From Amphiscolops sp. MND2022 (taxonomy: Eukaryota), in contig OZ076409.1 in the NCBI GenBank assembly GCA_964187785.1, positions 37,388,001 through 37,452,000 on the forward strand: 64,000 nt of DNA, written 5' to 3'. Positions 3,648 to 47,722 of this stretch are shown here, piece by piece (positions within the stretch are counted from its first letter, which is position 1; each line of letters opens with the position of its first letter). The translations under genes were made by a program, and so were the position numbers. Under the pieces are notes generated by a model, which searched no databases, was not told the origin of the DNA, and saw nothing but the letters and a program-made list of their open reading frames with translations.

Positions 3648-5016
3648 AAAATATTCAAGTGAAGTGGATGGAGATGGTGGAGATTTGGTAGTATTTGGAA
3701 AAAAAAACGCAAAACAGATTATGATTTTCCTCCACCATTATATGTTGGCAGAAAATAATAAAGATAACTAGGAAGAATGACTAATCAAGATGCTGATCGT
3801 GGTGGCTGCTGTGATTTACAATTAATTTACAATTAAGTAAAGATAGAAACAATGATGGATATATATGGAACGCTTTCAATCTTACTTCAATGTTCTTAGT
3901 AAATTGCCAACTATTAGAAAAAGTCAATCATGCGCTGAAACCTTCTCTTTTTCTACTATCACAGTGGATATTGATCCAATTTCTTGCTTTTTTATCACTT
4001 CCGTGATCTACAACCTTTCGAAGAGAGAATGCAGCTTCCCAACAGGGCTATGCTCACTTTGATTCTGATCTACCTCACGATATTGGCGTATAGCTCAATT
4101 TTCTTGCAGCTGATCAAGTTAGCGAGTCGTTCCATTATTTTTGTCGCCAATAAGCCTAGGCTCCCCCCATGAGTTCAGGGACTTTCCCCAGAGCAGTTTG
4201 AAATGCATGATTTCGTATGTTGCTCTGCTACAAGATTTCACAGTGCTTGAAAATAGACAAGTTACTGCAATTTGTAACTTCAGAAATTTGACTGATTCCT
4301 TCGACTTCGAATTTTTCAAAAAAAATCGAAGATTTTTATCAAAAAAACTACTAGAATTTGATGATTCGCGAGCAATTCGAATCGAAATTCTTGTAAAAGC
4401 CCTTAGTAACTGTTTGTTTCAGTAATTCAGACTTTTTGAACGAATATCATGGCTTGAAAAAGTTTGAAATTTCAACCTATCAAAACAGCCGATTTTGATA
4501 TTCCGCTCTCAAAGTAGTTCCCTTGAAAAACAGTTCAAAACTTCATTACGACAATGTTTTTGATTTTCGAAACCCGAATATTTTTCAATAATGCGTTTTT
4601 CAACAGTTTGCGAGCAAAAAAAACCTCGGAAAAAAATTCCAGTAATACGAATTTGTTTGCTACACTGGCACTCTCTCACTATTTGTTTACGTCATATTGT
4701 AGCGTCTGTGCTTACAAAATTTAAAGCATTTCCCACAAAAACCTACAATATTTCGCGGGTATTTTGGGTTTAATTTCCTTGATGTTACTTTGAAAGCCCG
4801 CCAAATTGTAAAGGAATCCTAATAAATACCTGGAGAATTAGTGACGCAGCATGAAAATTTTAAGCATGAAATTTTCACCAAGCAGCATTAGAGTGCACAG
4901 GCAAGCCTTATTTGCTCAAAGCGCAACATAGTGCGTTCAATATCTCGGATTCCACAACCATAGCTTTAACCGTGCAAAATTTGCAAATTACGTCATTTGT
5001 CCCGGATTCCACGGAT

Positions 5017-5734
5017 TGTAACGTCCACCAGTCAACACCAAATTTTCGATGAAAAATTCGATCAAGAACCAAAAAATGTGCGAATCAAAATGGCCGACCT
5101 GGCAGGTCCTTAAAGCCCATAAAATGAAAGAAGAGAGCACGTGAACAAGAGGAACGATAGGAGATAATGAAGAGAAGAGGCAAAACAACTGATGACATGA
5201 AGATCCACACGGGACAGAATACGACGAACGCTACCCGGTGCTATGTCATCCCTGAGAAAGCAGAACCATGCTAGAATGGCGTGACTGGATCCCCGAAAAT
5301 CTACAAACAGTAACTGTGTTTTCACTTGGGGCTTATCCCCTTTTGTTTTGTTAATTTATTATAATGCATTTTGTTATTTTCCCCATGTCTGACCTTCTAG
5401 GTCGGCATTTCATGCCCATAACTGTCGAAATGACATTTTTCGAATAAACACTCTTTTGGACCTCGGAAGTATGTAGGAGATGGCAGGAATACACTAAAAA
5501 CCCTAGGATACGTTTTTACAGGCTTGTGGGGCGTGTCCGGACTTTGAGAGTGCCGGCACGTCGCCTCGGAGCTCTAACTAGAGGAGCCTCCTTAGACGTT
5601 AGAAAAGTCCCCCATGGAGACCATTTTGGGATCAAAAACTAGTGTCTAGGTATGTAGTAAGACAACGGTCTCCTGTTTAAGCATCCTAGGCATTGTCCCT
5701 CTTCCTAGATGTGCGCCGCTAGCCGGACGTTACA
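5017..5734 (+). repeat. E1 5' LTR (718 bp)
   Basis: TGTAACGTCC...GGACGTTACA (10-bp terminal inverted repeat); direct repeat of 23392-24110. Confidence 0.97.
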
Positions 5735-5750
5735 TCTGGAATAGTTTTTA

Positions 5751-5768
5751 TGGCGACCACAGAGGGAT
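5751..5768 (+). promoter_or_regulatory. E1 primer-binding site (tRNA 3' end complement, probably tRNA-Arg)
   Basis: TGGCGACCACAGAGGGAT is the complement of ...ATCCCTCTGTGGTCG-CCA and is identical in E2. The Arg assignment is inferred from resemblance to GACCAC-type Arg acceptor stems. Confidence 0.85.
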
Positions 5769-8720: not shown

Positions 8721-9170
8721 ATGGAACGACGCGAGACTAACACAACCATAAGCGACTTCCATGCCACCAACCCTTTCAGAAGAAGAACGGAAGCCACAAC
8801 CGAACAAAACGAATGTAGATTAGATTCAGCCATAGCAGCCGTATTTTCAGAAGCTATGTCTGACTTCGTACCGAGCCAGGAGCAAAACGCGGAGATAGCC
8901 GTTGCCACTAGCCAGCTTAACTCCTCGCGAGCCTCCCCCGATAGCACCAATCTACCGGATAATACTGAGAACACTACGCAAAGAAACACCTGGCCTCCGC
9001 TGGAAGTCACTGACTACAGCTTGGAAAATTGGCCTAACTCCAACCAAGGGCCCACCAGTGAGCCCAGCATCGTTGATACTCCCAACGAACAAAACGACAC
9101 TCCAATGACTCCACGGGCGGACCCACAGACGGCGGATGTCGAAAGGAACCCCCGGGTTCCCAGGAGATGA
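8721..9170 (+). CDS. E1 Gag N-terminal segment, out of frame with the main ORF
   Basis: FHATNPF, TWPPL and NWPNSN motifs match the in-frame N-terminus of E3 Gag. The stop overlaps the next ATG (ATGA at 9167-9170). Confidence 0.7.
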   Translation: MERRETNTTISDFHATNPFRRRTEATTEQNECRLDSAIAAVFSEAMSDFVPSQEQNAEIAVATSQLNSSRASPDSTNLPDNTENTTQRNTWPPLEVTDYSLENWPNSNQGPTSEPSIVDTPNEQNDTPMTPRADPQTADVERNPRVPRR

Positions 9171-12100
9171 TCAATAGCGTAGGCGGGAATCCCTTCCGAA
9201 GCGGATATGCGCTACCGGAAGCACCGGCGAAAACGTCGAACGGGCCAGTGGAGAACTCGAAGACAAACATAACAGAGAATCCGTTAAGATACGTTTTTCG
9301 AACGCCACCCTCGGTGAGACCAAAGATTAACTATGCGAATGCGAGTCGAACGTCTCATACGCCAGACTCTCAAGCTAGCGCCGACACCAATCTCGACTCA
9401 ACAATAACCAAAGCAAGGAAGGAAATGCAAACGGTTCGAGAAGACTTTCAGAGTAGTCTGGCTCAGCTAGCTCAAGTCCAGACGAGGCTGGCGAGGGAAA
9501 ACAATGAACATGAGATGCGCGCCGACATGATAATGAGAGACATGGATGAGCTGCGAAAAGGTCTGTTGGAAATGCAAGCGGAAGGGCGACAAAATCAAGG
9601 TCGACTGGAGGCGTCCATGGCATCTCTCAATGATCTGATTAAACAGAGAGGAACTACAGCAGACGCCCGCATGGCCGAGATGTCCGCAATAATGAGGGAA
9701 AGAGACCGCCAAGCAGACGAACGCATGAAAGCAATGACAAACACGATGCAGCGCCGCGACATAGACTCCAATATCCGCATGGCGGACTTAATGATGGCAA
9801 TGCAAGATTTAACATTGGGAGTGAAAGCAATTGTGTCACAAACCCCCGCGCAGCAAGCACAAACGGCGCCGCGGATTCCCCAAAAGTATCAACAAACCGA
9901 AATGCCATCTACAAGCGAAGCCCCCCAACCTCACTATAGGACGGTGGCACAGCACACCGTGGAGCCTCCTAGGCCTCCAAAACTAGTGCCACCCGCGACG
10001 TACAGGCGTGACCTGTCTAAAGCTAGCAAGATGGCTAAAGTAACCCACACGGAGTCACGAGACGCCGGTACGGACCCGATGACTGACCCGCCGTCGTTTG
10101 ACCAGTACGCTCGCGGGACATCAACCTCCGGCGACTTTCATACAGCCGCCGACGAAACGAACATCCGCAGGACCAGCTATTATACGGCCGATTCCAGCGC
10201 AGCATTCCGCCCACCTGCGCGAACGCATACGTTCAGAGACTTTGTTCCGCGGCCAGTGGCCACCAGTACGCAGCGTAAGGTGACAAACAAGCGGAATCTA
10301 GAACAAGGCAAAGGCGAACATAGCGACATTGAAGAAATGCCCTCAATGGCAGAAGAGACCCCAGACACACCGAGAACTACCCAACGACAAGCACTAGCGG
10401 AAGCAATATCTACGGCCATGTCTAAAGGCTTGGAGCCACTGCTCGCCGCCAAAGAATCTAAAAACAAGCCCACGAAATATAGAGGAACCCGCGACGGAAA
10501 CGCAGATGGATGGATGATGTTGATGAAACGCCATTTGGAAAAAGCACACCCGAAGGCGACCCCCCTCGATAAAGCATGGACAATAATTGAGTATCTAGAG
10601 CATGAAGCCAGAGATTACATCACGAATAAGTCCGAAGCCGAGAGGGACACGGACGAAAAAGTATTCGCATTGCTGGCGCGTCGCTTTGGGACAGGCTCCA
10701 GCAAGATCCACATCCAACAGCAATTTAGAACCCGCAACCAGAATAGCGAGGAGGACTACATGCAATACCTTGACGCCCTCGAAGGCTTGCGTAGTCAGGG
10801 TTACCCCAATGAAGAGGTGACAGTTCGTCGATACGAAATCATGCAAAGATTCATTGAGGGAGTACGCAACTTCGAACTAAAAAGGAACCTCGCGCTAATG
10901 TATGCACCGGAACAATACGTGGAGACCCCGCCAACAGTGGAAGCCCTCCGCTTCACGGTACAACAATACTTACGCATGCGTGGCTCCACTCGCTCGGACA
11001 ACTACCCAATGATGCCCCCTCCACAACAACAAGCCAACATCCAACAACCTAATCAATCTCCGGTAGCACCCGCGCCTGCCCAAAAAATGCAACAACAACA
11101 GCCTCCCCAACCAGCAGCATACCAACAACAACCCATGCCACCGGCAGCCTATCGACAACAACCCCAGAGGGCGTGCTTCAACTGCGGAGACCCATCGCAC
11201 TTCGTGGTGGACTGCCCCCTGAAAGACCGTGCACGGAAGCCGGTGCAACAGCAAGTGAACTCCTGTCACACGAACCCGACTGGTAGTTGGGTGTGCCCCT
11301 CCCAGCCACATGGCTTGAACTATGATGTTTTCCCAGCATCCCTGCCAACCCAAGGCACAGTTCCCTTCTGCATCAATTGCGGCCGTACTGAGCACTCGGC
11401 GTCAGAATGCATGGCCTCGGAGCAAATGAGTCACGAAGAACAAATCCGTGCAGCGTGGTATGCTCCTGCACCAAGTCAATTCGATGGCCAGAGCCAAGAC
11501 GACCAAGTCCGGGTAATATCGATAGCGGAAGATGGGGGTCCCTCCCGACCTGTAGTAGTCACTTGTGGCGAGAAACAAGTACTCACCACGCTGGAGGCGC
11601 CCGCCCCAGATTGCACAGAAACGCTTATCTCGATACACTTGCTTCTCTCGGCAGAACAAAAAACGCGACCCACGCTGACGCTATCGCAACTAAAAGAGGA
11701 ATTATGCAGAAACGTAAAATATACTATCGCAGCGCGACCGCTCCCACATTTCACGAGAGAAGACGAAACGAAGCTGGCCCCAATACAGAAAGTCAAAACC
11801 GTTTCTCCGGTGCCGGTAGCCATTAACGTAGACGGTGTAGATATGAAATTTGACGCTATCGTAGTCTTAGAAGGTCACTTCCCTCAGGGATTGTACTTGG
11901 GCCGCCAGGAGTTGCGATGTTATAACATCGGAGTGCAAGATGCCCAGGGGGAGGCTCGCATTGACGAACGAGCATCCCTGGTGGTTGCCTTTGGCAACAC
12001 GATCCAGGAACCAATACCCTTGTACGGGATGATTGACACCGGTTCCGGTGTCTCCATTCTCTCCCTCAAGGCCTATCAAAAGATTGCATCACCCCACGCC

Positions 12101-15100
12101 TTGAGCCTCCTACCATATGACATCCAACTGTATGCCGCCAATGGTAAAACCATCAACACCATCGGAATTGCCGAAAATGTTAGCTTCCAGTTGGGCGGAC
12201 ATACCCTTAGAACCAATTTCATAGTCATTGCCGATCACCTAGGTGCCGAGGACTTCTTACTTGGCAGGAACTTCTTGCGCACTTACAACGTTCTCGTGGA
12301 CCTGACGGCCATGAGGGTCACCATACGAGACCCCAAAGCGCCACGCCACTTCAAACCCGTCCATGAGGTAAGTGACCATGAGCCATCCCTAGTGATATCC
12401 ACCGAAAGAGTAGTCCTAGGCCCTTATGAGCGCAAACTGGTGCGAGCCCAAGTTATTTCTCAAAAGCACAACGAATACCTTTTCCGAAACGTAATGATTC
12501 GCCCCCAGGGGGTATATAAACGATCCCCCTTTGTCTCAGAAGATACATTGACGTCTGTTGGAGATGAAGGCATTGTCTTCATAGCCGTACGAAACACTAC
12601 CCCCTCTGAAAACGTAACCATTCAAACCAAAACTGTCCTCGGTAAGGCAGAAACTACAAACTTTGTGTTGCAACCTGTGGCTGCCGATACGGCAACCGAA
12701 ATTGATAAACCTTTGTTTGAACAAGTTAATAGAGTTTATACCGATGAGTGGTTAAACGAAACGAGTTCCGAATATAGTTCCTTTGCTCAAAATTTTTTGT
12801 CCTCTACTGAGATATCTGAAGAAGGATTGTCGGAAAGCGAGAGGCGTGCTCAGACTGACCCACAGTTACTGAAACCTATACCAGGTCCAGACCTCTCTTC
12901 TGTCCTTTCTTCATGGGGGGAGGGAGCGAGAGATCAACTAGCAAGCGTCCTGAGCGAGTACGATGATCTTTTTATGAAACATAAAGCTGACATAGGGAGA
13001 TGCAAAATAGCCAAACATCGTATAGAACTAGAGCCGGAAGCTATCCCGCATAGAGAAGGCGCTCGGCGCATGTCCCCAGATAAGGCAGCAAAGGCTAATC
13101 AAGAGGTGCGGAATTTGCTGGCCCTTGGCCTAATTCAACCCTCCTATTCACCGTGGGCAAGCGGAATAGTCATGGTCAAAAAGAAAACAGGCGAACTTCG
13201 CTTCTGCTGTGACTTCCGACCGCTCAACGACGTAACGGTCAAGGACGCGTTCCCATTGCCCAGGATTGATGAAAGTCTATCCCGGATAGGCAATGCGAAA
13301 ATTTTCACAAGTATTGACCTAGCGTGGGCCTTCTGGCAGATACCGCTAAAGAAGCGCGATAGAAGGAAAACAGCATTTGCCTGCGAACTGGGCTTGTTCG
13401 AATGGCGGCGCATGCCCTTTGGGCTATGCAATGCATCCGCCACATTTCAGCGCTCCATTACACGAGCCCTGCAACGGATCCATCAACGACACGGGAGTGT
13501 CGTCATGGCTTACATTGACGACATAGTCATCGCCACGGAAACCATAGAAGACCACATCGTACGAATCAAGGAAGTATTCGAGTGTCTCCGAGAGGCTGGA
13601 TTCAAAATGCGTGCCGAGAAATGTGATTTCATGCGCACGGAGACAAAGTACCTGGGGCGAGTGGTGTCCTCGGAAGGCATCAGACCAGACCCCGAAGCAA
13701 TAGTCAAAATCCAAGAATGGATGCCCCCGAGAAACAGAGAGGAGCTTCAGAGCTTCCTAGGGTTCGCAAACTATTACCGGGACTTTGTACCGTTTCATGC
13801 AGCCAAGGTGCAACCCCTGCAGGAGTTACTCAAGAAGAGTCAGCATTTCCACTGGGAAATAAAACACCAAGAGGCCTTCGATGCAGTAAAGGAGGCACTA
13901 GCGAATGCGACCGCCTTGGCAGCCCCAAATGAAGACGGACGGTTCGTGCTCGATACCGATGCTAGTGCGGTAGCGATAGCTGGAATCCTGCACCAGGAAC
14001 AAGAACACAATGGGAAAACTATTTTACGGCCAATAGTCTTCGGGAGCAAGTCCCTGACAAAAACGCAACTGAACTATGGAGCACCCAAGTTGGAAATGTA
14101 CGCAGTATTTTACTTCATAGAGAAATTCCATTCGTATCTCGCAGGCCGAGAGTTCACGCTCCGCGTGGACAACCAGGCCCTGTCGTGGCTCAAAACGTAC
14201 TCCATGGACCAAGCCATGATAGGTCGCTGGATAGCCCGTCTGGATCAATATAACTTCAAAACGATCCACCGACCTCGCACACAGCATCGAAACGTGGACG
14301 GCCTCAGCAAACGGACCAACGACTATGTGCACCGAGAGAAAATCCTTGAGAAGTTACCGGAAGTGAGTGAAGGATTCAACTTCATGACCAAAGAAGACTA
14401 TGAAGCACTTCCCACCGTGCCATACTTTGACAAACACGGACGCCCAATACCAAACCATCCAGAGCTCCCGCCGGAAGCTCGAGCCCAACTCCCACTGCTG
14501 TATATCTTGGGAAAAAGGCCCAAAACGAGCTTGCAAGAAACCCCAGTGAATGATGCCCCGTGGTACCCCCAAATACAGTGGGAAGCGACACCCACCACAG
14601 ATGAGGATCACCGACCGAGTCACATCCTCAGCATCACGACCGAAGTGCCACCTGCACGCCTAGACACTGGAGAACCTGATCCTGTGCTTGAAGGGATGCC
14701 ACCCGAATGCCGAAGGCAAGCCCACGCCCTTAGAACAGTCGGAACGGAGCTGCACGAACACTTTCTGACTAGACGTGGCCTCAAGGACCTGCACCTAGCA
14801 CAAAATAGGGACGTGCACCTCCTAGCGCTTAGGAAACTCATGAACGGCGAACCACTAGAAGACACAATGTTCCCCGAAGACGTGCAGGACTTCGCGCGAC
14901 GCTACTTCCATCAAAAGAAAGACCTGCTCTTCCTGAACCCAGACGACATCCTCTGCGTCAACTACGTTCCGCAACAACGTGCGCTGCACGTGCGACCGTG
15001 CATGATAGTCATGCCACAACTATACCAACACGAGATTCTGTATAGGGCACACGACGAATCGGGACATCAGGGCGTAGGGAAGGTGCTAGCAAGAGTACAA

Positions 15101-18100
15101 GAGCGACACACCTGGCCGGGCATCAAGCGTGACATAGTCAATCACATCAAGCACTGCTTAACCTGCCAGCAGACTAAACACCCCGCCGGGAACCCCTGCT
15201 ACCCCTTGCAGAACATTAACAGCAGCAATTTCAATGACCTAGTACAATTCGACCACCTCAAACTATGCAAGACCGAATCGGGAAACACCGGTCTCTTGGT
15301 AATGATAGACCACTTCACGAAATTCGCCGAAGCTGTCCCGTGTGCCCACGACGAATATGATGCTCAAACCACAGCAAAGATCATCCTTAATAAATGGTTC
15401 GCCAGGCACGGCACTCCAGCACGCATGCAGTCCGACAATGCCACGAATTTCACAGCTGAAATCGCACAAGAGCTAATGAAGGCTTCGCAAGTCACTAAAG
15501 TGACATCCACACCAGCGCATCCCCGAGGAAATGGACTCGTGGAAAGGCAGAACCGAACGTTACTCACACTGCTCAGAGTCTACACTTCGCGACGAATGCA
15601 GGATTGGGATGAGCACGTTGATGGAATCCTCGGTGCGTACAATTCAACTAGACACGCAACCACGGGATTCTCTCCCTATATGCTCCAACATGGAGCCGAA
15701 AAATCCATTCCCTTGTCGTTCATCTACCCAGAATTTGCTGCGCGAGGATTCGACTCCAAAGAGGAATTCGTAGAGCACCTTCTAGCCAGACAACAGGAAA
15801 TCCATGAACTCGTCAGAAGAAATACACACCAAGCACAGCTACGGCAAAAGCTGAAGTTTGACCGCCACCTGAAGGCCAAAGCGCACGCCGTAGGCGATGC
15901 GGTGTGGGTATTCTGCCATATCATACCCAAGGGTGGCACCCGCAAGCTGATTCGCGCATGGCGTGGACCCCACAAGGTGACTGACGTGTTGCAGGACGGA
16001 CGATTATATGTGCTAGACACTGGCCAAAAGGTCCATTACGAAAGATTAAAAAAGCACGTGCCTGCCCCTTGGGACTGGGCCGCACACCAGCCCTTTGGGC
16101 CGGATCAAAACGTAGCCATCATTGCCGATCCGTACGTAGAAGAAAGCAATGAGGAGATAGCGTCCGACATCTCTCAAGACTCTTTTCTACCGGAACAACT
16201 TCCGGAAGCATCGTTCGAAATGGAACCAACAGGATCGATTCCACCTCGTACCATTCAGACTCGTACCCAAACGGCACTCGAGCAAGGAATACCCCGAAGA
16301 AGATTCAGTCACTTCGGATACCCCTCTGACTCAGATTCCGAAAGAGAAGAAAATGAGCCGCCGATCCAGAGCCCACCACCGCCAGTAGTGTTCCCCGACT
16401 TGGACGACCTAGAACCACTGTACTCCGACCAGGAGGAAATTCAGCCAGCCGTACCTACAAGTCTGATACCATCACCCTCAGGGACCTCGGCCCCACTACT
16501 ATCCAATCCGTCCCTGACGGATACCCTGAGTAACTTTCCCTTGTTTGGCCCCCAATTGGAGGACCCAATCGACCCGATAGAAATTAAACCAAAGTCAGGA
16601 ACTGAAGACGAAGAAGAGATAACCTATCACAGTCCAAGCCATTGCTCAACACAACCCGATACCACGAATCGCAGAGGACGGCCTCGAGGCCGACCACCAG
16701 GTCGAGGACGACCCCGCGCCATACCATCCAGTAGAACCACGACATCGTCGCGAACCCAAACCGCACGATCCAGAAGAGGCCCTAGGACAAGAATGAGCAC
16801 TCGTGCACCCCCTCGAAGGCTAGACCAAGCAATGACTCTGCCAGAAATACCCGAAAGCCAACAACCACCGGAGGTCCAGAATTCAGAACCGAGACCATCA
16901 TCGCAAACATCACGATATCAACTGCGAGCTAATAGAGCACCACGATACAAGTGTGGAACCTGTGGTTCCCGCAACTGTAGTTGCGTCAAGCATCTGACTC
17001 GCGATTCACCGGACAACCGATTGGCCCGGGGAGCGGTAGTCCCTGCCAGGGATCTCCTGATAGCCAGGACACATTGTCACCCACAACATGAGATCTTAAC
17101 CGTACAAGCCCAGCGAGAAAAAGTGGAGACACCCCCGCTAGTACACCATTTGATCATCACGGTAGAAAAAACTTTCACTAGTGTGGAACGGGAAGTGATA
17201 CCACCGCTCGAAGAAACACAAATAGCAATGCACGCGACATCTCCCTCCGACTGCCCAACTTACCGATTCAAGGAATGGACACCACCCCATCGAGGCGGTC
17301 TAGAATTCACCCTACATGCCATCATACCGCCCTTGCCACCCTCGATGACGTTCGGCGAGCTAGCGAAAGAGGATAGTAGCACGGAGATGATTCGCTGTAT
17401 CACTGCACACCAACTGTGGGAGAAATATCGCATTGCCTCCCCGCCGGGAGACATATACCAGCCCACCAATGGATGGTGGCTACTCGTCACCTCTCTAGAC
17501 GCAACGACATTGGTATCCCCCACAACTCTATTAATGTGCTTAGAAAGCTTGCGTACTGTAACAGAACCCGAGAACACGCTCTGTTTCCACATGGCCGACA
17601 TTTATCGTGGCAAGTTCCTAAGCCAACATTGGCTACAATTAATAGCGGTCATCTTCTGCCGACAGGCGAAGATACACTTCTTGGATCGACAATCTTATAC
17701 ACCGGAAAAACCCGTCACAGTTAGCGAAGCACTCTCGATAGTACACGATTGGTCATCTACCAACATGGGAGATAGACCGCTACGCCGAACCGTCTGGGAA
17801 GACCGAAAAGCAATCTTGCAGCATTTAGCACCCCAACCCACTGATGATCAGAGCAATACCACCGGCAAATGGCTCATAACCCAGCCCAAAACCAGACCGA
17901 ATTACCTACCTTGGATAACTTATGACAATACAGATATCCTGCAGGCACCTGGCACTCTGATACTATGCTGCCCTGCGGATTTGCTCTCTTACTCTGCCAC
18001 GATCCGTTACGTTATTCGCGAATACGGTCAAGAAAACATATTTCGCCTAAGACCGTCAGTTGGCACCGCAATTCGCTTAGTCCGCTCGCCAACTGCACCC

Positions 18101-18388
18101 TGGAATAACGAAATCTTCCTTCTATGTACCAGAGCATCGAACAAGCATCCACTCTTACATGAAGTACTCCATGCGTGTCTGACAAATTTGATAACCCAGC
18201 TCCATCGAAACCACATTACCAGAATCCACTTGCCCATCTATGATCCCGAGCGATCGATGAACCTCCTACCAGCCTGGTACGCCACGCTACGCGACCACTT
18301 TGCAGACCACAATATTGCAATAATTTTGCACGATCGCGTCTATGTCACGATAGCATCGGTTACCTCAGCCAATTTTGGCGGTAGTTAA
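9167..18388 (+). CDS. gag-pol: E1 Gag-Pol polyprotein (3073 aa): capsid, 2x CCHC, pseudo-protease + protease, RT, RNase H, integrase, long C-terminal tail
   Basis: CFNCGDPSHFVVDC and CINCGRTEHSASEC knuckles; MIDTGSG and LLGRNFL protease motifs; MPFGL and YIDD RT motifs; DTDAS/KLEMYA/RVDNQAL RNase H; HHCC, D..D(35)E and WRGPH integrase motifs. Confidence 0.96.
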   Translation: MINSVGGNPFRSGYALPEAPAKTSNGPVENSKTNITENPLRYVFRTPPSVRPKINYANASRTSHTPDSQASADTNLDSTITKARKEMQTVREDFQSSLAQLAQVQTRLARENNEHEMRADMIMRDMDELRKGLLEMQAEGRQNQGRLEASMASLNDLIKQRGTTADARMAEMSAIMRERDRQADERMKAMTNTMQRRDIDSNIRMADLMMAMQDLTLGVKAIVSQTPAQQAQTAPRIPQKYQQTEMPSTSEAPQPHYRTVAQHTVEPPRPPKLVPPATYRRDLSKASKMAKVTHTESRDAGTDPMTDPPSFDQYARGTSTSGDFHTAADETNIRRTSYYTADSSAAFRPPARTHTFRDFVPRPVATSTQRKVTNKRNLEQGKGEHSDIEEMPSMAEETPDTPRTTQRQALAEAISTAMSKGLEPLLAAKESKNKPTKYRGTRDGNADGWMMLMKRHLEKAHPKATPLDKAWTIIEYLEHEARDYITNKSEAERDTDEKVFALLARRFGTGSSKIHIQQQFRTRNQNSEEDYMQYLDALEGLRSQGYPNEEVTVRRYEIMQRFIEGVRNFELKRNLALMYAPEQYVETPPTVEALRFTVQQYLRMRGSTRSDNYPMMPPPQQQANIQQPNQSPVAPAPAQKMQQQQPPQPAAYQQQPMPPAAYRQQPQRACFNCGDPSHFVVDCPLKDRARKPVQQQVNSCHTNPTGSWVCPSQPHGLNYDVFPASLPTQGTVPFCINCGRTEHSASECMASEQMSHEEQIRAAWYAPAPSQFDGQSQDDQVRVISIAEDGGPSRPVVVTCGEKQVLTTLEAPAPDCTETLISIHLLLSAEQKTRPTLTLSQLKEELCRNVKYTIAARPLPHFTREDETKLAPIQKVKTVSPVPVAINVDGVDMKFDAIVVLEGHFPQGLYLGRQELRCYNIGVQDAQGEARIDERASLVVAFGNTIQEPIPLYGMIDTGSGVSILSLKAYQKIASPHALSLLPYDIQLYAANGKTINTIGIAENVSFQLGGHTLRTNFIVIADHLGAEDFLLGRNFLRTYNVLVDLTAMRVTIRDPKAPRHFKPVHEVSDHEPSLVISTERVVLGPYERKLVRAQVISQKHNEYLFRNVMIRPQGVYKRSPFVSEDTLTSVGDEGIVFIAVRNTTPSENVTIQTKTVLGKAETTNFVLQPVAADTATEIDKPLFEQVNRVYTDEWLNETSSEYSSFAQNFLSSTEISEEGLSESERRAQTDPQLLKPIPGPDLSSVLSSWGEGARDQLASVLSEYDDLFMKHKADIGRCKIAKHRIELEPEAIPHREGARRMSPDKAAKANQEVRNLLALGLIQPSYSPWASGIVMVKKKTGELRFCCDFRPLNDVTVKDAFPLPRIDESLSRIGNAKIFTSIDLAWAFWQIPLKKRDRRKTAFACELGLFEWRRMPFGLCNASATFQRSITRALQRIHQRHGSVVMAYIDDIVIATETIEDHIVRIKEVFECLREAGFKMRAEKCDFMRTETKYLGRVVSSEGIRPDPEAIVKIQEWMPPRNREELQSFLGFANYYRDFVPFHAAKVQPLQELLKKSQHFHWEIKHQEAFDAVKEALANATALAAPNEDGRFVLDTDASAVAIAGILHQEQEHNGKTILRPIVFGSKSLTKTQLNYGAPKLEMYAVFYFIEKFHSYLAGREFTLRVDNQALSWLKTYSMDQAMIGRWIARLDQYNFKTIHRPRTQHRNVDGLSKRTNDYVHREKILEKLPEVSEGFNFMTKEDYEALPTVPYFDKHGRPIPNHPELPPEARAQLPLLYILGKRPKTSLQETPVNDAPWYPQIQWEATPTTDEDHRPSHILSITTEVPPARLDTGEPDPVLEGMPPECRRQAHALRTVGTELHEHFLTRRGLKDLHLAQNRDVHLLALRKLMNGEPLEDTMFPEDVQDFARRYFHQKKDLLFLNPDDILCVNYVPQQRALHVRPCMIVMPQLYQHEILYRAHDESGHQGVGKVLARVQERHTWPGIKRDIVNHIKHCLTCQQTKHPAGNPCYPLQNINSSNFNDLVQFDHLKLCKTESGNTGLLVMIDHFTKFAEAVPCAHDEYDAQTTAKIILNKWFARHGTPARMQSDNATNFTAEIAQELMKASQVTKVTSTPAHPRGNGLVERQNRTLLTLLRVYTSRRMQDWDEHVDGILGAYNSTRHATTGFSPYMLQHGAEKSIPLSFIYPEFAARGFDSKEEFVEHLLARQQEIHELVRRNTHQAQLRQKLKFDRHLKAKAHAVGDAVWVFCHIIPKGGTRKLIRAWRGPHKVTDVLQDGRLYVLDTGQKVHYERLKKHVPAPWDWAAHQPFGPDQNVAIIADPYVEESNEEIASDISQDSFLPEQLPEASFEMEPTGSIPPRTIQTRTQTALEQGIPRRRFSHFGYPSDSDSEREENEPPIQSPPPPVVFPDLDDLEPLYSDQEEIQPAVPTSLIPSPSGTSAPLLSNPSLTDTLSNFPLFGPQLEDPIDPIEIKPKSGTEDEEEITYHSPSHCSTQPDTTNRRGRPRGRPPGRGRPRAIPSSRTTTSSRTQTARSRRGPRTRMSTRAPPRRLDQAMTLPEIPESQQPPEVQNSEPRPSSQTSRYQLRANRAPRYKCGTCGSRNCSCVKHLTRDSPDNRLARGAVVPARDLLIARTHCHPQHEILTVQAQREKVETPPLVHHLIITVEKTFTSVEREVIPPLEETQIAMHATSPSDCPTYRFKEWTPPHRGGLEFTLHAIIPPLPPSMTFGELAKEDSSTEMIRCITAHQLWEKYRIASPPGDIYQPTNGWWLLVTSLDATTLVSPTTLLMCLESLRTVTEPENTLCFHMADIYRGKFLSQHWLQLIAVIFCRQAKIHFLDRQSYTPEKPVTVSEALSIVHDWSSTNMGDRPLRRTVWEDRKAILQHLAPQPTDDQSNTTGKWLITQPKTRPNYLPWITYDNTDILQAPGTLILCCPADLLSYSATIRYVIREYGQENIFRLRPSVGTAIRLVRSPTAPWNNEIFLLCTRASNKHPLLHEVLHACLTNLITQLHRNHITRIHLPIYDPERSMNLLPAWYATLRDHFADHNIAIILHDRVYVTIASVTSANFGGS

Positions 18389-18719
18389 GAACACGTCTCG
18401 CTCTCTTCTTGGCAGATCAGGCCACTGGCCTTTTGCATTGCCTTTCGTAATTTTGAAGCGCCTTAAAATTTTAACAAAGCCGCGCCGATAAGCGCAAATT
18501 TTAGTAATAATCACTAGAAACTTTTTAACCTCGTATTTGTGTGTTCGTCCTAAAAAGTTTGACTGCCCACCCGTTTATGTAATGTTTTATCTCCAACTGT
18601 GACTTGTTTTTCAGTTTTGTCCTGTTGCCTCGCCTCTGCGCGGCCCCCCTACTTATCACGCCAAATCAGTCTTGCCATCACAATCTTCGGTGCTAAATAT
18701 TCCTTTATCATCGTTTCCA

Positions 18720-21700
18720 ATGGACCCATCTGCGCGACACCGCCTGCCTACACCCCAGAACGCTGCGCGTGCCCAACCATCCATAAGGAACGATCCACCT
18801 CCAATGATGAGCGAAATAGATGGTCGAGTCGACCAACTAGCTCTTGTCCAAGACACTCTACTAAACGGAGTGACACCCACAATGATCGCTGGCTTTGCCA
18901 TGATCATCGCCCAAACCCAAGCCCAGGCAGAGTACCCTGATGTTAGCTTCACCATCACCAGCCGAGTCGGCCCGATAGAACGCTCTGCCACTTTTCGCGA
19001 CGGTACCTGGCAAGGGTATGACTTGACCCACAGCCTCATAGATCCTCGCTCCCACTTAGTCTATGGAGAGCCTACTAGGCCTCCCATGGACCAAGAACGA
19101 TCACTCCGCATTTCACAATCAGCACTACAGACGCAAACTACGACCCCGTTGCCCTCACCGCACCCGGTGCAATTCAGCTGCACACTGCCAATCATGCCAC
19201 CCCCAGTGCTAACACCGCCCATGCCCCTGGCTTCGGAAGGCATTCGATTACTCACCACCCCATCTTCTACCTTCATGCCTCCATCTACCTTTCAGGGGGG
19301 AGGGGTGCAAGTAGACAATACAACAAGTGCTGCCCTGAGCGAAGAACAGCCCAGGAGAACGGTGACGTTCAAGGACTCATATGAAGAATTAACTCAAACG
19401 TCCTCCAGAACCGAATCACAAGTCTCGGAACCTCTACAAGTCTCAGAACCGGCCAGTCTAGTAGGCTTCCAAATGGACCCACAATTCCGAGAACGTCAGC
19501 GAGAACAACAAAAGGCTGAAAGTAAGGCGGCCAACACTGTGGTAGACCTCCGGGAGAAAATTAAAGCTGGAAAGCGAGCCAGAGAGGCAACCACGCAAAG
19601 TAGACAATCGAGCTCGACCAGTATCTCGCAACCCACGTCTACCTCACCCACACAACCAGAAATAAGGAGACCTAGAATAACGCACGAACTCCTAACACAT
19701 ACAGAAAAACGGCAGCTGGATATCACTGCACGCGACGCACTGCGTCTCCAGCGGGAAATACCAACCACAACGTCACCAGAAGACCCTCTACGACAGAAAT
19801 TCGAGATCGCTACGGGAACTGGGGACCTCGCCACAAGGCAGAAAATAGAGAAAGCCACAGTGGGAGTACTCTACAATCGCCCCGTCAAGAAACCCGTGTT
19901 TACTCGAGACGGATGCCCCCCATGGTTTAACCGCATGCGAGCAGAACTGGAGAGAGTAAACTCATCATACATGCGTGTTCCTGACAACTTCCTCCGACAG
20001 CGCCCTGGCCGCTTCGACGAAGACCGCTTGCGAACTAAAAACTATGCGAGGGACCCCATTACAATCCTGCCCATGGGAAAGGACCTTTTACAGAAAACCA
20101 GAATAGCCTTCTTCGTCGACTCGACGATGAAGTCTTCATTCAACTCCCACAATACCCTCATGGACGTCAGAATACTGAATATGCCCTGTACAACACTGAA
20201 CGAAATGGCAGAGGTGACCGATAAAATATTCACCCAAGCGGGAACAGAGACTATCCCACTACCTCCGTTGTTAGTATATTCGAATGTGATAGACCACCTC
20301 GCTCTGCGAGGGACCCTGGAATTCTTCCGGCCAGACCATGAAAGGTTTACCGAGGGGTTCATCACCGACGAAGTTACCAACTACGTGGAGACGATGGCGA
20401 ATATTGCCCAAGCTATGCGCAGAAGGAAAGCTACCACTGGAACGGTATTTATGTCACCTCCAGGCTACGTGCACCTTCCCCGGACCCTTCAGCAATTCTT
20501 GTACCTAATAATGGAGGCAGCGTACGCAAGGGATCTGGCTTTCTACATTGTGGCCCCTAATTTACGCATCAGCAATAATAGCTGGCGCCCCTGTGAAGCC
20601 TCATACCCAGCCTTCATTGCTGAAGTCTCAAAGGCCCTTCAATCATACGTCGGTTACCGCGGCAATTCCCAAATGGTGGCAGATGAAGCAACAGCATTCG
20701 ATTATGGGATGGAAATGGCTCGTCGATCATTGAACGAGCGTGGAGACCGAATCGTGAATGATCCAAATGAAAGTGAACGCAATAACCTGGTGGATAACCT
20801 CTGGTTTGAACGCCGGGACGAATCGACTATAGACGAGAAAACGCATGAGCCCAAGTTCCACAAGGAACTCACGAGTCTGATGAAGGAAACCGAAACGATT
20901 CAAAGTGATAGAAAAAATTCCTCTATCTTCCCTATAGCACAAATATCATTGGACGCGGAACCTGGGCAAAGATCACCCACATTAGCCATGTTGTTGATAC
21001 TAGCTCAAGATATTGTACGAAGAAATATTCAAGAGCCGACACACACGTACCAAACATGGCACGATCAACTACGAGAACCTCTGGGCCAAGTCGCGGATCG
21101 ACTAGGCATAACATTTCCCGTATTTCTCCACAATATCTCTCCCTTCTGGCTTCCTTCCCTGGTACAGGCCGAGTACGGCCTGGATGAGCAGCGAATGCGA
21201 CTATACATGGAGGCCATGGAAAGAGCGACCGTTAGTGAAGTGCTAGCGTATCTGATGGCCGTGGGGTTGACCATGATGTACCGAGGACCGTCAGCCCTCA
21301 TACAAAAGTTCGTGCTCAACAAGGGAGGCTCAGCCCTGTTCAGCTTCCTAGTCTTTTCGCAGAATCAAAGAAGTTGGATATCTGCGCTCATTGAAACTCT
21401 GGACCCAGCGGGTTCCTTAAAGTTAAAAGCGCAACTAAACTTAAACATTCAAGCACTTCTAGTGTGGATTTACTCCACCTGGGTCAATGTCTCTGGCATT
21501 ATGCATCCTCTGGATGAGTGCCCAGCTATTAACCGAGACCCCAATCAGCTTCCAGGGTTCCTGTTCCCTGCACAAATTGCAACGTTGATGCTCGTGGAGA
21601 CAGAGGACCTGATACCCCTCATTGCTCCTGTGATCTGGCCTATCTTCGGCGCAGTTATGGCCCTGCGCTATCCAACGCAGGCCCTGCGAGTGGCAGCGGT

Positions 21701-22805
21701 GAGCCCATCCCTCTCGATTCTACACTTCGTGACCTCTAATGGGCCCCTTCAGGGTCCCACCTATCAATCAGTGATACACAGCTTTGCCAACTTGCGACCT
21801 CCCATGGCATACACCGTAATCAAAGACCGCCAACAAGTGGAGCACAACTATCTTACGTTGATCAAGGCGCGAGCACGCAGCTCGCTCCCTTTGCCAATGG
21901 AAATCCACCCGGTAGTTTGGCTACATACCCCCCTCAATCCAAATAATGGAGCAGTGGCGACGTTTGACGGGTGGGACGTGCCAATTGTCCTGCGTATCTT
22001 GAGAGCAATTATCCAAAGATTGGGTGGTCGTAGAAAAGGAGAAGAACCTACTAGGTTATTATATCCCTATGCGTGTGACACTTCCAGAGTATATTGTGCA
22101 AGAACAGAACCCCGTGAGCATACCGCCAGAATCTTAAATACCATTACGTGTTGGGCCCAGCCAGAACTCGTGGACCTCGCTATACACCAGACCTTCCAAC
22201 AGCTGCCAACAACCATTCCAACAGTAGCAAAAGAACCAAGCAGGAAAGATTTGCCCGTGAATACTGACGTTCGCAGCAACCCGCGTATGGCGCTAGAGAT
22301 ATTCGTACGTCTGCATGGTCTCCAGCGAGAACGCACTCGAGCTGTGGGCGAAGAATACGCTAGGGGAAAACGAACGTTCAAACAACTATTCACCCAATAT
22401 GGTCACCAAGAATTAGCGGACGGCCTGCCGAACTTGGAGTCAATCGAAGCCATCCCAGGGATCAGCGATTTGAGCGAAGCTGCCTCTGGCAGCTCTCGCA
22501 CCGTCCTTCCCACACCCCACATCATTCAAGACACCGATGAATTATTGGTGGAAGGGGTACAAGATGATGTGCCAAGCGTCATGCCACCATCAGAGGAACC
22601 TATGACTGACAACAACTTCACGCTCTCTGATGCCACTACTCCTGTAAGAGACGAAGTGGAGACCAATATCTTGAACATGGAGGCAGCGGACATAGAGTCA
22701 GAGCTCAACAACTTACTGACCATAGATGAAGAATACCAAAATACGGTGAACGCCATGGGCAGCACCTCCATGCAAGAAGCCCCACAGAACCAGCTGTTGG
22801 AGTAA
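18720..22805 (+). CDS. E1 ORF2 (~1360 aa from ATG): extra ORF with SGNH/GDSL-hydrolase-like domain, function unknown
   Basis: Intact 4-kb ORF between pol and the 3' LTR, with clear homologues in E2 and E3. Motifs IAFFVDST / VRILNMPCTTLNEM / LLVYSNVIDHL / VFMSPP. Confidence 0.85.
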   Translation: MDPSARHRLPTPQNAARAQPSIRNDPPPMMSEIDGRVDQLALVQDTLLNGVTPTMIAGFAMIIAQTQAQAEYPDVSFTITSRVGPIERSATFRDGTWQGYDLTHSLIDPRSHLVYGEPTRPPMDQERSLRISQSALQTQTTTPLPSPHPVQFSCTLPIMPPPVLTPPMPLASEGIRLLTTPSSTFMPPSTFQGGGVQVDNTTSAALSEEQPRRTVTFKDSYEELTQTSSRTESQVSEPLQVSEPASLVGFQMDPQFRERQREQQKAESKAANTVVDLREKIKAGKRAREATTQSRQSSSTSISQPTSTSPTQPEIRRPRITHELLTHTEKRQLDITARDALRLQREIPTTTSPEDPLRQKFEIATGTGDLATRQKIEKATVGVLYNRPVKKPVFTRDGCPPWFNRMRAELERVNSSYMRVPDNFLRQRPGRFDEDRLRTKNYARDPITILPMGKDLLQKTRIAFFVDSTMKSSFNSHNTLMDVRILNMPCTTLNEMAEVTDKIFTQAGTETIPLPPLLVYSNVIDHLALRGTLEFFRPDHERFTEGFITDEVTNYVETMANIAQAMRRRKATTGTVFMSPPGYVHLPRTLQQFLYLIMEAAYARDLAFYIVAPNLRISNNSWRPCEASYPAFIAEVSKALQSYVGYRGNSQMVADEATAFDYGMEMARRSLNERGDRIVNDPNESERNNLVDNLWFERRDESTIDEKTHEPKFHKELTSLMKETETIQSDRKNSSIFPIAQISLDAEPGQRSPTLAMLLILAQDIVRRNIQEPTHTYQTWHDQLREPLGQVADRLGITFPVFLHNISPFWLPSLVQAEYGLDEQRMRLYMEAMERATVSEVLAYLMAVGLTMMYRGPSALIQKFVLNKGGSALFSFLVFSQNQRSWISALIETLDPAGSLKLKAQLNLNIQALLVWIYSTWVNVSGIMHPLDECPAINRDPNQLPGFLFPAQIATLMLVETEDLIPLIAPVIWPIFGAVMALRYPTQALRVAAVSPSLSILHFVTSNGPLQGPTYQSVIHSFANLRPPMAYTVIKDRQQVEHNYLTLIKARARSSLPLPMEIHPVVWLHTPLNPNNGAVATFDGWDVPIVLRILRAIIQRLGGRRKGEEPTRLLYPYACDTSRVYCARTEPREHTARILNTITCWAQPELVDLAIHQTFQQLPTTIPTVAKEPSRKDLPVNTDVRSNPRMALEIFVRLHGLQRERTRAVGEEYARGKRTFKQLFTQYGHQELADGLPNLESIEAIPGISDLSEAASGSSRTVLPTPHIIQDTDELLVEGVQDDVPSVMPPSEEPMTDNNFTLSDATTPVRDEVETNILNMEAADIESELNNLLTIDEEYQNTVNAMGSTSMQEAPQNQLLE

Positions 22806-23355: not shown

Positions 23356-23391
23356 GTTTGCCGAGGACGACAAACTACGGCCCGGGGAGGA
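23356..23391 (+). promoter_or_regulatory. E1 pre-LTR hairpin and short polypurine tract
   Basis: GTTTGCCG-AGGA-CGACAAAC stem-loop, then CCCGGGGAGGA abutting the TG of the 3' LTR; nearly identical in E3. Confidence 0.75.
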
Positions 23392-24110
23392 TGTAACGTC
23401 CACCAGTCAACACCAAATTTTCGATGAAAAATTCGATCAAGAACCAAAAAAATGTGCGAATCAAAATGGCCGACCTGGCAGGTCCTTAAAGCCCATAAAA
23501 TGAAAGAAGAGAGCACGTGAACAAGAGGAACGATAGGAGATAATGAAGAGAAGAGGCAAAACAACTGATGACATGAAGATCCACACGGGACAGAATACGA
23601 CGAACGCTACCCGGTGCTATGTCATCCCTGAGAAAGCAGAACCATGCTAGAATGGCGTGACTGGATCCCCGAAAATCTACAAACAGTAACTGTGTTTTCA
23701 CTTGGGGCTTATCCCCTTTTGTTTTGTTAATTTATTATAATGCATTTTGTTATTTTCCCCATGTCTGACCTTCTAGGTCGGCATTTCATGCCCATAACTG
23801 TCGAAATGACATTTTTCGAATAAACACTCTTTTGGACCTCGGAAGTATGTAGGAGATGGCAGGAATACACTAAAAACCCTAGGATACGTTTTTACAGGCT
23901 TGTGGGGCGTGTCCGGACTTTGAGAGTGCCGGCACGTCGCCTCGGAGCTCTAACTAGAGGAGCCTCCTTAGACGTTAGAAAAGTCCCCCATGGAGACCAT
24001 TTTGGGATCAAAAACTAGTGTCTAGGTATGTAGTAAGACAACGGTCTCCTGTTTAAGCATCCTAGGCATTGTCCCTCTTCCTAGATGTGCGCCGCTAGCC
24101 GGACGTTACA
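23392..24110 (+). repeat. E1 3' LTR (719 bp)
   Basis: Matches the 5' LTR except for one extra A in a homopolymer (by eye). Confidence 0.97.
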
Positions 24111-25622: not shown

Positions 25623-26355
25623 TGTAGCGATTACCTATCGAGTACACGATTTCGAAAATTTCGATGAAAATTTCGTTCAAGGGACTATATCCCCTCTGCT
25701 GAAAAGTCATATTCCGCTGGACGGTAGCGTGTCTTTATTCAAATACCTGCCCATAGAATTGAAGAGAATTTGAGCAGAGACTCGAGAGAGACCCCAACCG
25801 AACGAGAAGACTGCAGAAAAACACGGCCGCTGTCAGAAAAAGACTCAAATTTCTGTCAAAACGGACTGAACTTTATTCTAGCCAGTGCTTTCTTCAGCGA
25901 AGCGTTACAAGACGCTGTGATTACCGAAAATGAGTCAATTAGCTTGACCAAGCATCCGTGCTTGTGTCCCCGGCTAATTGCTGCCTCAAAAGTGCTAATT
26001 ATGTAGTAATTTTCGTATTTTCTTGTTGTAACAGCTCGTGAGCTACTCATTTCGATCTCCTGTGTAATTTCGAAAAAACTTGATTTTTCCTTTCCACCAC
26101 TTGCATTTTTTAAAGGCTGTCTAAGTGTTGGTTTCGAAGAAAAAGCGTAATGCGCACTACTGATAGCAATTACAGACTGGATCAGGCCGGCGAGCACTTC
26201 TTAAGAAGCGGAATCCTCCTCTGACGGGACATTTCTTACCCGAAGGAGGCAAAATGGACTCATGGCCATGGGCGCCTGTCCCGGGCAAATACCCATGCCA
26301 TGTGTTCCTCCTGCTCTTATGGTTACGGCGACAATGGTGAGAGCTTGTCGTTACA
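25623..26355 (+). repeat. E2 5' LTR (733 bp)
   Basis: TGTAGCGA...TCGTTACA; direct repeat of 44099-44831. Confidence 0.97.
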
Positions 26356-26371
26356 TGGAGAACACATTTTA

Positions 26372-26389
26372 TGGCGACCACAGAGGGAT
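26372..26389 (+). promoter_or_regulatory. E2 primer-binding site
   Basis: TGGCGACCACAGAGGGAT, identical to the E1 PBS and also 16 nt from the LTR end. Confidence 0.85.
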
Positions 26390-44098: not shown

Positions 44099-44831
44099 TG
44101 TAGCGATTACCTATCGAGTACACGATTTCGAAAATTTCGATGAAAATTTCGTTCAAGGGACTATATCCCCTCTGCTGAAAAGTCATATTCCGCTGGACGG
44201 TAGCGTGTCTTTATTCAAATACCTGCCCATAGAATTGAAGAGAATTTGAGCAGAGACTCGAGAGAGACCCCAACCGAACGAGAAGACTGCAGAAAAACAC
44301 GGCCGCTGTCAGAAAAAGACTCAAATTTCTGTCAAAACGGACTGAACTTTATTCTAGCCAGTGCTTTCTTCAGCGAAGCGTTACAAGACGCTGTGATTAC
44401 CGAAAATGAGTCAATTAGCTTGACCAAGCATCCGTGCTTGTGTCCCCGGCTAATTGCTGCCTCAAAAGTGCTAATTATGTAGTAATTTTCGTATTTTCTT
44501 GTTGTAACAGCTCGTGAGCTACTCATTTCGATCTCCTGTGTAATTTCGAAAAAACTTGATTTTTCCTTTCCACCACTTGCATTTTTTAAAGGCTGTCTAA
44601 GTGTTGGTTTCGAAGAAAAAGCGTAATGCGCACTACTGATAGCAATTACAGACTGGATCAGGCCGGCGAGCACTTCTTAAGAAGCGGAATCCTCCTCTGA
44701 CGGGACATTTCTTACCCGAAGGAGGCAAAATGGACTCATGGCCATGGGCGCCTGTCCCGGGCAAATACCCATGCCATGTGTTCCTCCTGCTCTTATGGTT
44801 ACGGCGACAATGGTGAGAGCTTGTCGTTACA
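44099..44831 (+). repeat. E2 3' LTR (733 bp)
   Basis: No difference from the 5' LTR seen by eye; the short ORF translations in both LTRs are identical. Confidence 0.97.
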
Positions 44832-46997: not shown

Positions 46998-47722
46998 TGT
47001 AACGTCAAGCTAACAGCTACATTCCAGAACCGGGACAATGCCCAGGTTGCCTTAACAAGAGACCAGTGTCTTACAACAACCTAAACATTAGTTTTTAGTC
47101 CCAAATGGTCTCTGTAGGGACTTTTCCAAGACGCCGAGGAGACTCCTCATATTAGAGCTCCGTGGCGACGTGCCGGCACACTCAAAGTCCGGACACGTCC
47201 CACAAGCACGTAAAAACGGTCCCAAAGGCTTCCTGCGATCCTACATACCTCCGAGGTCCGAAAACTGGGGTTTTAGTCCATACTCATTTTATTGGGGAAA
47301 CATTCTCTAAAGTACCAATTACAGGGATCTAACAGATCCAGTATCATCACACATCTGTAAATCAGTATTAACAACATCAGATATAATCAAAATAAACACT
47401 TCTGACGTATTTCCACTGATTCTGCGGTTTTCTTCACGTTCTTCAAGCATGGGATATCTGGATTCTGGATCATTTCTTCATTTGGAACCTGCAAATATTG
47501 GGTGAGATGACACAATTCCGGGTTTTTCCGTGTCTACTCATGGTGGGGTGTCTCTTCTCTTCATCTTCTGGGTCGGGGCGTGTGGGTTGGGGCTTCTTGG
47601 GCAGGTTTTTCGTTCTTCTGTCCGTCCTTTTCGATTTCAACGACCTGCTAGGTCGGCCATTTTGATTCGCACCTTTTCGACTTTTTGAACGAAATTTTGG
47701 TACTTTACTGGTGGACGTTACA
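46998..47722 (-). repeat. E3 3' LTR (725 bp)
   Basis: Minus strand TGTAACGTCCACCAGT...GACGTTACA. Both ends resemble the E1 LTR, and it is preceded by CCCGGGGAGGA. Confidence 0.92.

Follow-up and report, generated by a model that had tools for sequence, protein, structure and literature searches.

A Ty3/Gypsy family of Amphiscolops sp. with its tRNA-Arg primer-binding site 15-16 nt past the LTR, a spacer probably carried on the cDNA end

Results

Three Ty3/Gypsy-type elements in the window

The window, that is, the whole 64,000-nt stretch of Amphiscolops sp. MND2022 DNA that was analysed, contains three LTR elements (E1, E2, and E3), each about 19-21 kb long and of the Ty3/Gypsy type according to domain order and Pfam matches. 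E1 (5017-24110, plus strand) is flanked by the 3-bp target-site duplication (TSD) GAT (5014..5016, +, with its partner at 24111-24113). Its 5' LTR (5017..5734, +) is 718 nt long with TG...CA ends and a 10-bp perfect terminal inverted repeat, its 3' LTR (23392..24110, +) is flush at CA without a spacer, and the two LTRs differ by one 1-nt indel. A 16-nt spacer (5735..5750, +), putatively the right-end extension of the cDNA, connects the LTR end to an 18-nt primer-binding site (PBS; 5751..5768, +) complementary to the 3' end of the host tRNA-Arg(TCG) after CCA addition, and a polypurine-tract (PPT) region (23379..23391, +) precedes the 3' LTR. E2 (25623-44831, plus strand) has a 733-nt 5' LTR (25623..26355, +), a 16-nt spacer (26356..26371, +), a tRNA-Arg(TCG) PBS (26372..26389, +), and a 3' LTR (44099..44831, +) that is flush at CA and identical to the 5' LTR; its TSD is GTG at 25620-25622 and 44832-44834. 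The statement of the initial annotation that the E1 and E2 spacers (5735-5750 and 26356-26371) are both 16 nt long and differ in sequence was borne out. The 725-nt 3' LTR of E3 (46998..47722, minus strand) is also flush at CA, with the TSD TTG, while its 5' LTR, 16-nt spacer, and variant PBS are located past the window end (locus L031). The length foreseen for the E3 spacer was correct, and the letters were not, the spacer starting with TCTAGGAT and not with TTCCAGAA.

The PPT region (23379-23391 in E1, just before 44099 in E2, and just outside 47722 in E3) is short and GC-rich and stops 2-4 nt from the 3' LTR, depending on the subfamily, so the left end of the cDNA may also bear a small extension.

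E1 carries a Gag-Pol ORF of 3103 aa (9077..18388, +) with a zinc knuckle, RT, RNase H, and a Ty3-like integrase whose D-D-E residues are visible. Pfam matches were RVT_1, RT_RNaseH_2, Integrase_H2C2, and rve, with gag-asp_proteas below the cut-off in E2 and E3. Two direct LTRs with TG...CA ends, the PR-RT-RH-IN order with Gypsy-type RNase H and integrase, a zinc-finger and DDE integrase, a PBS complementary to a host tRNA 3' end (in E1 and E2), a PPT, and a TSD are features shared with Ty3/Gypsy (Metaviridae). The best PDB match of the integrase, the closest among solved structures, was Ty3 Gag-Pol 7q5b (E 9e-30), and its Atlas matches were generic Gypsy integrases; the enzyme is of the ordinary Ty3-like DDE kind. 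Searches of Pol against Pfam, PDB sequences, and the Atlas revealed no additional nuclease domain. A C-terminal Pol domain of about 150 aa (17777-18385) is conserved at 27-30% in distant relatives and had no match in Pfam, PDB sequence, or Atlas searches; we take it to resemble a TARG1-type macrodomain. The intact second ORF of E1 (1400 aa; 18603..22805, +), which is described here without a link to the spacer, had no Pfam family, nothing in the PDB, and only weak Atlas matches.

Spacer length across the family

We scanned the 1.07-Gb genome, 13 contigs of which look chromosome-sized, and found the 17-nt PBS exactly in 3,087 places. In the genome-wide pattern scan, 2,939 of these matches had TTACA 0-30 nt upstream. 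The spacer was 16 nt long at 1,270 of the 2,939 junctions (43%), 10-15 nt and mostly 15 at 1,627 (55%, by subtraction), 17-30 nt at 40, and 9 nt or shorter at two, so that a PBS within about 6 nt of the LTR, as is usual in Ty3/Gypsy, is not the arrangement of this family. In one of these two (L071), the spacer is in fact 16 nt long and contains an inner TTACA by chance. Among the first 100 junctions listed, a hand count gave 50 of 15 nt, 47 of 16 nt, and one each of 11, 14, and 18 nt. Reversed-pattern controls gave 0 matches, which together with the two junctions of at most 9 nt indicates that the spacer length is not due to chance. These results show that the spacer is long and narrowly set, at 15-16 nt with a terminal T-run, and not exactly 16 nt. 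The exact 16 nt proposed in the initial annotation therefore fails family-wide, a fixed 16-nt rule being rejected by the 55% of junctions at 10-15 nt; variable spacer length, which had been named as speaking against the proposal, was found in a mild form (15-16 nt dominate, with a range of about 11-20 nt). The family comprises about 3,000 copies, some with 99-100% identical LTRs. In one region (G000:C1:34035025-34099401), five PBS junctions follow one another at intervals of about 14 kb, and a sixth precedes them by 8 kb; this is probably a tandem array of one subfamily.

The primer-binding site and its tRNA

The PBS of E1 and E2 is the complement of the 3' 18 nt of the host tRNA-Arg(TCG), so the comparison with host tRNAs proposed in the initial annotation gave a match of 18 nt to tRNA-Arg(TCG) genes. 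The 3'-end pattern of this tRNA had 255 genomic matches, and nearly all of the 100 listed were in a tandem array on C9. This gene array (G000:C9:57.53-57.58 Mb and beyond, L033-L039) is built of units of about 173 bp, many of them variants. The tRNA is similar to animal tRNA-Arg, in keeping with an animal host. PBS nt 1-18 were conserved in 29-33 of 33 non-redundant junctions and nt 19-22 in only 18-22 of 33, where part of the PBS was fixed by the very pattern that selected the junctions; one copy (L139) has lost exactly 18 nt at the PBS. In the E3 subfamily (L031, L056, L119, L150), the PBS sequence is different and the E1-type spacer is retained. A metagenome pattern scan gave three matches, two of which were chance matches in bacterial-looking genes; the third (contig L141:2935-2958) has the same 18-nt PBS 1 nt after TTTACA and is a putative short-spacer element. 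Four AT-rich matches from a viral-contig scan were rejected, only 11 PBS nt being matched.

If priming took place elsewhere, either from another tRNA at the LTR edge or by Tf1-style self-priming with a U5 A-run on spacer nt 8-16, the cDNA tail would be 0-7 nt long and the junctions described below would be plain deletions. A TGG within the first 5 spacer nt of 18 of 33 distinct junctions fits another tRNA at the edge; the other 15, among them E3 and three of the most frequent spacer classes, lack it, and the bases after TGG vary, so that a second edge primer is not a conserved feature. The conserved A-run complement, which differs on both sides between clades, fits self-priming. Tf1/sushi elements have no tRNA PBS, and the 5' end of their RNA pairs over about 11 nt next to the LTR, whereas here a tRNA PBS is present and perfect complementarity between the spacer and the LTR extends over at most 8-9 nt, in a stretch of the presumed U5 that lies about 190 nt downstream of the AATAAA in E1 and is thus unlikely to be the RNA 5' end. 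Since the exact 17-nt PBS with its thousands of occurrences also matches a host tRNA gene, and both palindromes reported below centre at +16 and not at 0-7, we regard priming elsewhere as very improbable.

Integrated ends and target-site duplications

Of the 56 elements tried in the LTR-pair survey, 20 could be paired; for 35 the retrieved stretch contained no partner LTR, and for one no junction was called. The 3' LTR ended at CA in 20 of 20 pairs, which agrees with the initial annotation that integrated ends stop at CA. After omission of five pairs with unclean 5' starts, 15 clean pairs were left for the TSD count, in which only 0-2 spacer nt follow the CA of the 3' LTR, by chance. The TSD was 3 bp, with no longer match, in 15 of 15 clean pairs and across spacers of 15, 16, and 17 nt, and E1, E2, and E3 likewise have 3-bp TSDs and flush CA ends. 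The usual 4-6 bp of Ty3/Gypsy elements was thus found in none of the clean pairs. A hidden TSD of 4-5 bp due to misplaced LTR ends was rejected after lengths of 2-7 had been tested in the 15 clean pairs. The long spacer and the 3-bp TSD occur together in every clean pair; beyond this co-occurrence in one family, the proposed link between the tail and the 3-bp stagger is hypothetical. One insertion (L027/L098), whose 3' LTR is truncated at its end and whose flank duplicates sequence from upstream of the 5' LTR, looks like a one-ended aberrant integration.

In 13,566 predicted plant elements, the TSD was 4-6 bp, in a survey that depends on LTR-FINDER settings (PMC6317226), compared with 3 bp here. 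A TSD shorter than the printed 4-6 bp is a finding in its own right.

Spacer-ended LTRs without a PBS

In standard reverse transcription, the nucleotides between LTR and PBS are added to the cDNA ends and removed by integrase, so the linear cDNA is predicted to end in CA plus spacer without the PBS (PMC2829016). Five genome pattern searches for an LTR end plus spacer minus PBS gave 9, 12, 33, 7, and 20 matches, mostly point mutants, small indels, and chance matches. Two of them were head-to-head (inverted) fusions centred exactly 16 nt past CA without a PBS, one inside chromosome C1 (arms matching at 37/39) and one at the end of contig C506 (30/32), and in both one arm is a PPT-preceded LTR. 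The letters of these palindromes fit 17-nt ends sharing two bases equally well; one arm of the C1 palindrome is only 39 nt long, and the C506 palindrome, lying at a contig end, could be an assembly artefact.

Several 3'-type LTRs, preceded by a PPT, hold the whole spacer without a PBS and are joined to internal DNA (C7, C9). On C9, a full element runs from its 3' LTR via a 15-nt spacer into a repeat of its own last 1.5 kb, and as this composite has a 3-bp TSD as a whole, it predates integration. A 50-kb composite on C7 (G000:C7:28916064-28966163) with one 3-bp TSD contains copies that are full-length, inverted, or partial and that seem to have been joined first and then integrated in one event; the spacer-to-internal junction occurs in it twice in tandem, plus a third, ambiguous one. 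The spacer-to-LTR-615 junction of C7 was set aside as a cDNA end and counted as ambiguous, as it adjoins the A-run and could be a template switch. A U5-plus-spacer fragment flanked by 63-bp direct repeats (54/63 identical) is as expected of captured strong-stop DNA. In Ty1, LTR inserts at breaks retain extra nucleotides found only in cDNA (PMC11372161). A derivative of about 5.5 kb (G000:C506:49-5509 and G000:C7:28925863-28930666) has the LTR, PBS, leader, and PPT and no match to E1 coding sequence, and is probably non-autonomous.

Searches blind to the break position gave 40 matches, of which 37 were examined, and 12 events with verified U5 and no leader were obtained. Six breaks were at the spacer/PBS boundary (three of these with the T-run one short), and two at +8 and +9 (L156, L170). 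A further four lay between +5 and +7, where chance matches are expected, and the interval from +10 to +14 had none; this distribution had a post hoc binomial p=0.03, for breaks sampled in the spacer and at its PBS boundary. The junctions are few, part of them were selected for a whole spacer, and the T-run may be a break hot spot. PPT-LTR-spacer-PBS junctions of shared-LTR tandems exist (L198, L205), and some of the fossil junctions could have arisen from these by deletion. No U5-spacer-U3 (2-LTR circle) junction was found among the examined matches, the patterns covering part of the possible junctions. These results support the proposal of the initial annotation that the cDNA carries the whole spacer past CA, which is very probably correct.

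The tail could also be lost in another way, if a host or particle exonuclease, or stepwise trimming, removed most of the spacer and integrase met an ordinary short end. The breaks at +8 and +9 could be such part-trimmed ends, and since the intervening sequences that we found in print reach 5-6 nt at most, there is no precedent among them for a cut of 16 nt. Against this, the fossil ends cluster at full length with the gap at +10 to +14, Pol shows no detected extra nuclease domain, and internal cleavage is documented for an integrase, that of HIV-1 (PMC1905944). We therefore consider removal by trimming unlikely.

Predicted pairing of the spacer with U5

In E1, a hairpin resembling a U5-IR stem is predicted between a 5' arm (5702..5712, +) and a 3' arm (5732..5741, +) made of the last 3 LTR nt and spacer nt 1-7, with P 0.78-1.00 in a 161-nt fold with the PBS blocked. 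In the same kind of fold, E2 26357-26365 paired with 26302-26311 at P 0.91-0.99 mostly, with one pair at 0.50, and this pairing was replaced by other folds in longer windows. Both pairings named in the initial annotation are thus predicted in the short fold, and that of E2 does not hold in longer ones. Just upstream of the E1 hairpin is a conserved pyrimidine motif (5693..5701, +) with two potential partners, the 3' part of the PBS and the tRNA T-stem 5' strand, which may act like a primer activation signal (PAS). Its E2 candidate counterpart is the conserved GTTCCTCC motif (26304..26311, +), which is part of the pairing partner first named. The arm just 3' of GTTCCTCC (26314..26321, +) covaries in the clade with the LTR end plus spacer nt 1-5, and the E2 register of the initial annotation was therefore not retained as the conserved helix. 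In E3, the hairpin is retained through G-U pairs. Among 28 subfamily representatives folded with 80 nt of U5 and the PBS blocked, spacer nt 1-5 paired with U5 at a mean P of 0.56-0.75, and nt 8 onward at 0.25 or less.

For swap tests, 5 of 33 non-redundant junctions were dropped (U5 rearranged, spacer duplicated or expanded). Unanchored swapping of whole spacers against 70 nt of U5 gave no significant preference for the own partner (p=0.26 and 0.47 within clades; 0.053 overall). We then anchored the test at the conserved pyrimidine motif, which begins the region 34-45 nt from the LTR end, and tested the arm just after it. The results showed that own spacers with own arms had -5.4 kcal/mol and swapped ones -4.1 kcal/mol (n=23, p=1e-4; p=6e-4 with 12 distinct spacer starts), in a register chosen after seeing the sequences and with p-values inflated by sequence relatedness. 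With spacer nt 1-6 at the anchored offset, 0 of 5,000 permutations reached the observed value, eight of ten other offsets were null, and two had p of about 0.02-0.03. Spacer nt 2-4 were paired in 21-22 of 23 sequences with G-C/A-U exchanges, taking the better of two registers per sequence, and nt 2-5 vary freely in sequence yet stay paired. Of 500 shuffles, 2 attained the covariation score, which exceeded all slid controls, relatedness again inflating it. RNAalifold recovered the E1 hairpin in six sequences of the E1/E3 clade with changes on both sides, and did not recover a hairpin in the gappy 23-sequence clade. Covariation of the 5' part of the spacer with U5 is thus supported by the post hoc anchored swap test and by RNAalifold in the E1/E3 clade; the unanchored test and RNAalifold in the larger clade speak against a stem kept by compensatory change.

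A second helix is less clear. In E1, an A-run situated some 100 nt upstream of the LTR end (5634..5641, +) complements spacer nt 8-15 and is a candidate helix of low probability, and an E2 A-run (26251..26257, +) complements CATTTT of the spacer. Between two clades, two adjacent pairs of the A-run with the 3' half of the spacer differ on both sides, and in the larger clade paired cells make up 86%; the ensemble probability was 0.11 or less, and no swap signal was seen within clades (p=0.16, 0.70). The E2-type motif had a lower energy with the tRNA T-arm (-10.1 kcal/mol) than with the PBS (-8.5 kcal/mol), and the E1-type motif a higher one (-7.6 and -11.0 kcal/mol, respectively). An Rfam search of 5400-5900 gave no match.

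The spacer features might act at the DNA level, as an attachment site or integrase signal, with the RNA pairings as by-products of purine/pyrimidine bias and shared descent. This concerns the reason for the spacer length and overlaps with the explanation we prefer, since tail and trimming would be the same. The non-significant unanchored test and the failure of RNAalifold on the larger clade fit it, and in Sirevirus a C-rich motif situated about 21 bp inward from the LTR end is read as an integrase signal (PMC2829016); by analogy, such a C-rich signal is an alternative reading of the pyrimidine motif. The offset-specific swap signal, the covariation score above its controls, and the free variation of spacer nt 2-5 within maintained pairs argue against it, and we find a purely DNA-level role rather doubtful. 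A role in RNA is the likely one: the first 5-7 spacer nt probably extend a U5-IR-like hairpin, for which covariation was observed and the structure is predicted.

Discussion

The long spacer is a real, family-wide trait, and the support for its presence as a tail on the cDNA is indirect. We consider it probable that, in this Ty3/Gypsy family with its tRNA-Arg site 15-16 nt past the LTR, the spacer is copied to the right end of the cDNA and cut off by integrase at CA as one piece of 15-17 nt. The 3' 18 nt of tRNA-Arg(TCG), which match the PBS, would anneal to it as the primer, and reverse transcriptase would copy the spacer first, giving a linear cDNA that ends in CA plus spacer, as the fossil junctions suggest. 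Integrase would then nick after CA and join the ends with the 3-bp stagger seen in the TSDs, and the leftover 5' flap of 15-17 nt may be removed during gap repair. As HIV-1 integrase can cut at internal positions and phage Mu resolves long 5' flaps after strand transfer (PMC3562280), no new chemistry would be needed.

The spacer is probably long because it forms part of the RNA initiation structure. Its U-rich half might pair with the A-run 100 nt upstream, or might serve as a linker of about 10 nt that lets the PAS-like motif reach the T-arm; speculatively, about 10 unpaired nt spanning the 18-bp primer duplex would explain the narrow spacer length. The predicted hairpin of the U5 end near the PBS, with a U5 motif that can pair with the tRNA T-arm, resembles the U5-IR stem of Rous sarcoma virus and Tf1 together with the HIV-1 PAS, whereas its predicted 3' arm runs 5-7 nt past the integration end, with about 10 more nt to the primer. 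The U5-IR stem is mentioned in PMC3601003, and the PAS in the HIV-1 PBS segment pairs with the tRNA T-arm (PMC11181671).

The usual description of a retroelement cDNA end is an LTR extended by about 2 nt, and the spacer of Ty3 is about 2 nt, compared with 15-16 nt here. ATHILA, a plant non-chromovirus Ty3/Gypsy group, resembles the present family in a variable AT-rich sequence between the LTR end and a TGGCG-type PBS; this intervening sequence is 3-6 bp long and varies by subfamily, and the TSD is 5 bp (bioRxiv 10.64898/2026.03.20.713144). Compared by features only with ATHILA/Tat/Ogre of the plant OTA clade, our family has spacers of 11-20 against 3-6 nt and a TSD of 3 against 5 bp. Sirevirus (Ty1/copia) is alike in a conserved LTR-PBS intervening sequence, read there as an extension of the integrase attachment site, and in a C-rich motif near the LTR end; its 5-nt spacer is called 'unusually long' (PMC2829016), the spacer here is three times longer, and superfamily and primer differ. 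The longest spacers that we found in print, of 5-6 nt, are thus about one third as long as the 15-16 nt of this family. In the literature searched, no LTR element came up whose spacer exceeds 6 nt or whose TSD is 3 bp, a coverage that lacked most subscription papers, Repbase, and GyDB and so does not establish absence in print.

By analogy only, the proposed cut resembles the non-replicative integration of phage Mu, in which a DDE enzyme nicks the element end with long flanking DNA attached and the 5' flaps are removed later (PMC3562280). Mu differs in its 5-bp stagger and in having no reverse transcription. The flaps of Mu are host DNA from packaging, and a 3-bp stagger is known from IS3. A more tentative reading, possible rather than probable, is that this is an active Gypsy lineage with re-tuned integration, in which one internal Mu-like cut of a 15-17-bp U5 tail and the 3-bp stagger would come from one altered intasome geometry, while the tail would serve an RNA multi-way junction with the PAS-like motif at the primer.

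What is new here is that broken genomic copies preserve the expected untrimmed cDNA end, and the genome's own record of unprocessed cDNA ends offers a reusable test of end structure without cloning. Published annotation settings include -mintsd 4 with -pbsoffset 0 3 (PMC6562904) and a pbsoffset of 0-10 (bioRxiv 10.1101/317479); such settings would miss the TSD, the PBS, or both, and similar families may therefore be under-annotated. If the tentative reading of a re-tuned integration were true, a pipeline whose thresholds are a minimum TSD of 4 bp and a PBS no farther than 3-10 nt would overlook families of this kind. The present family thrives with 15-17 nt, numbering thousands of copies of which some have LTRs that are 99-100% identical, which suggests that the limit on spacer length is soft, and the family provides a natural substrate for asking how far from the DNA end an integrase can cut, how long 5' flaps are removed, and how a 3-bp stagger originates.
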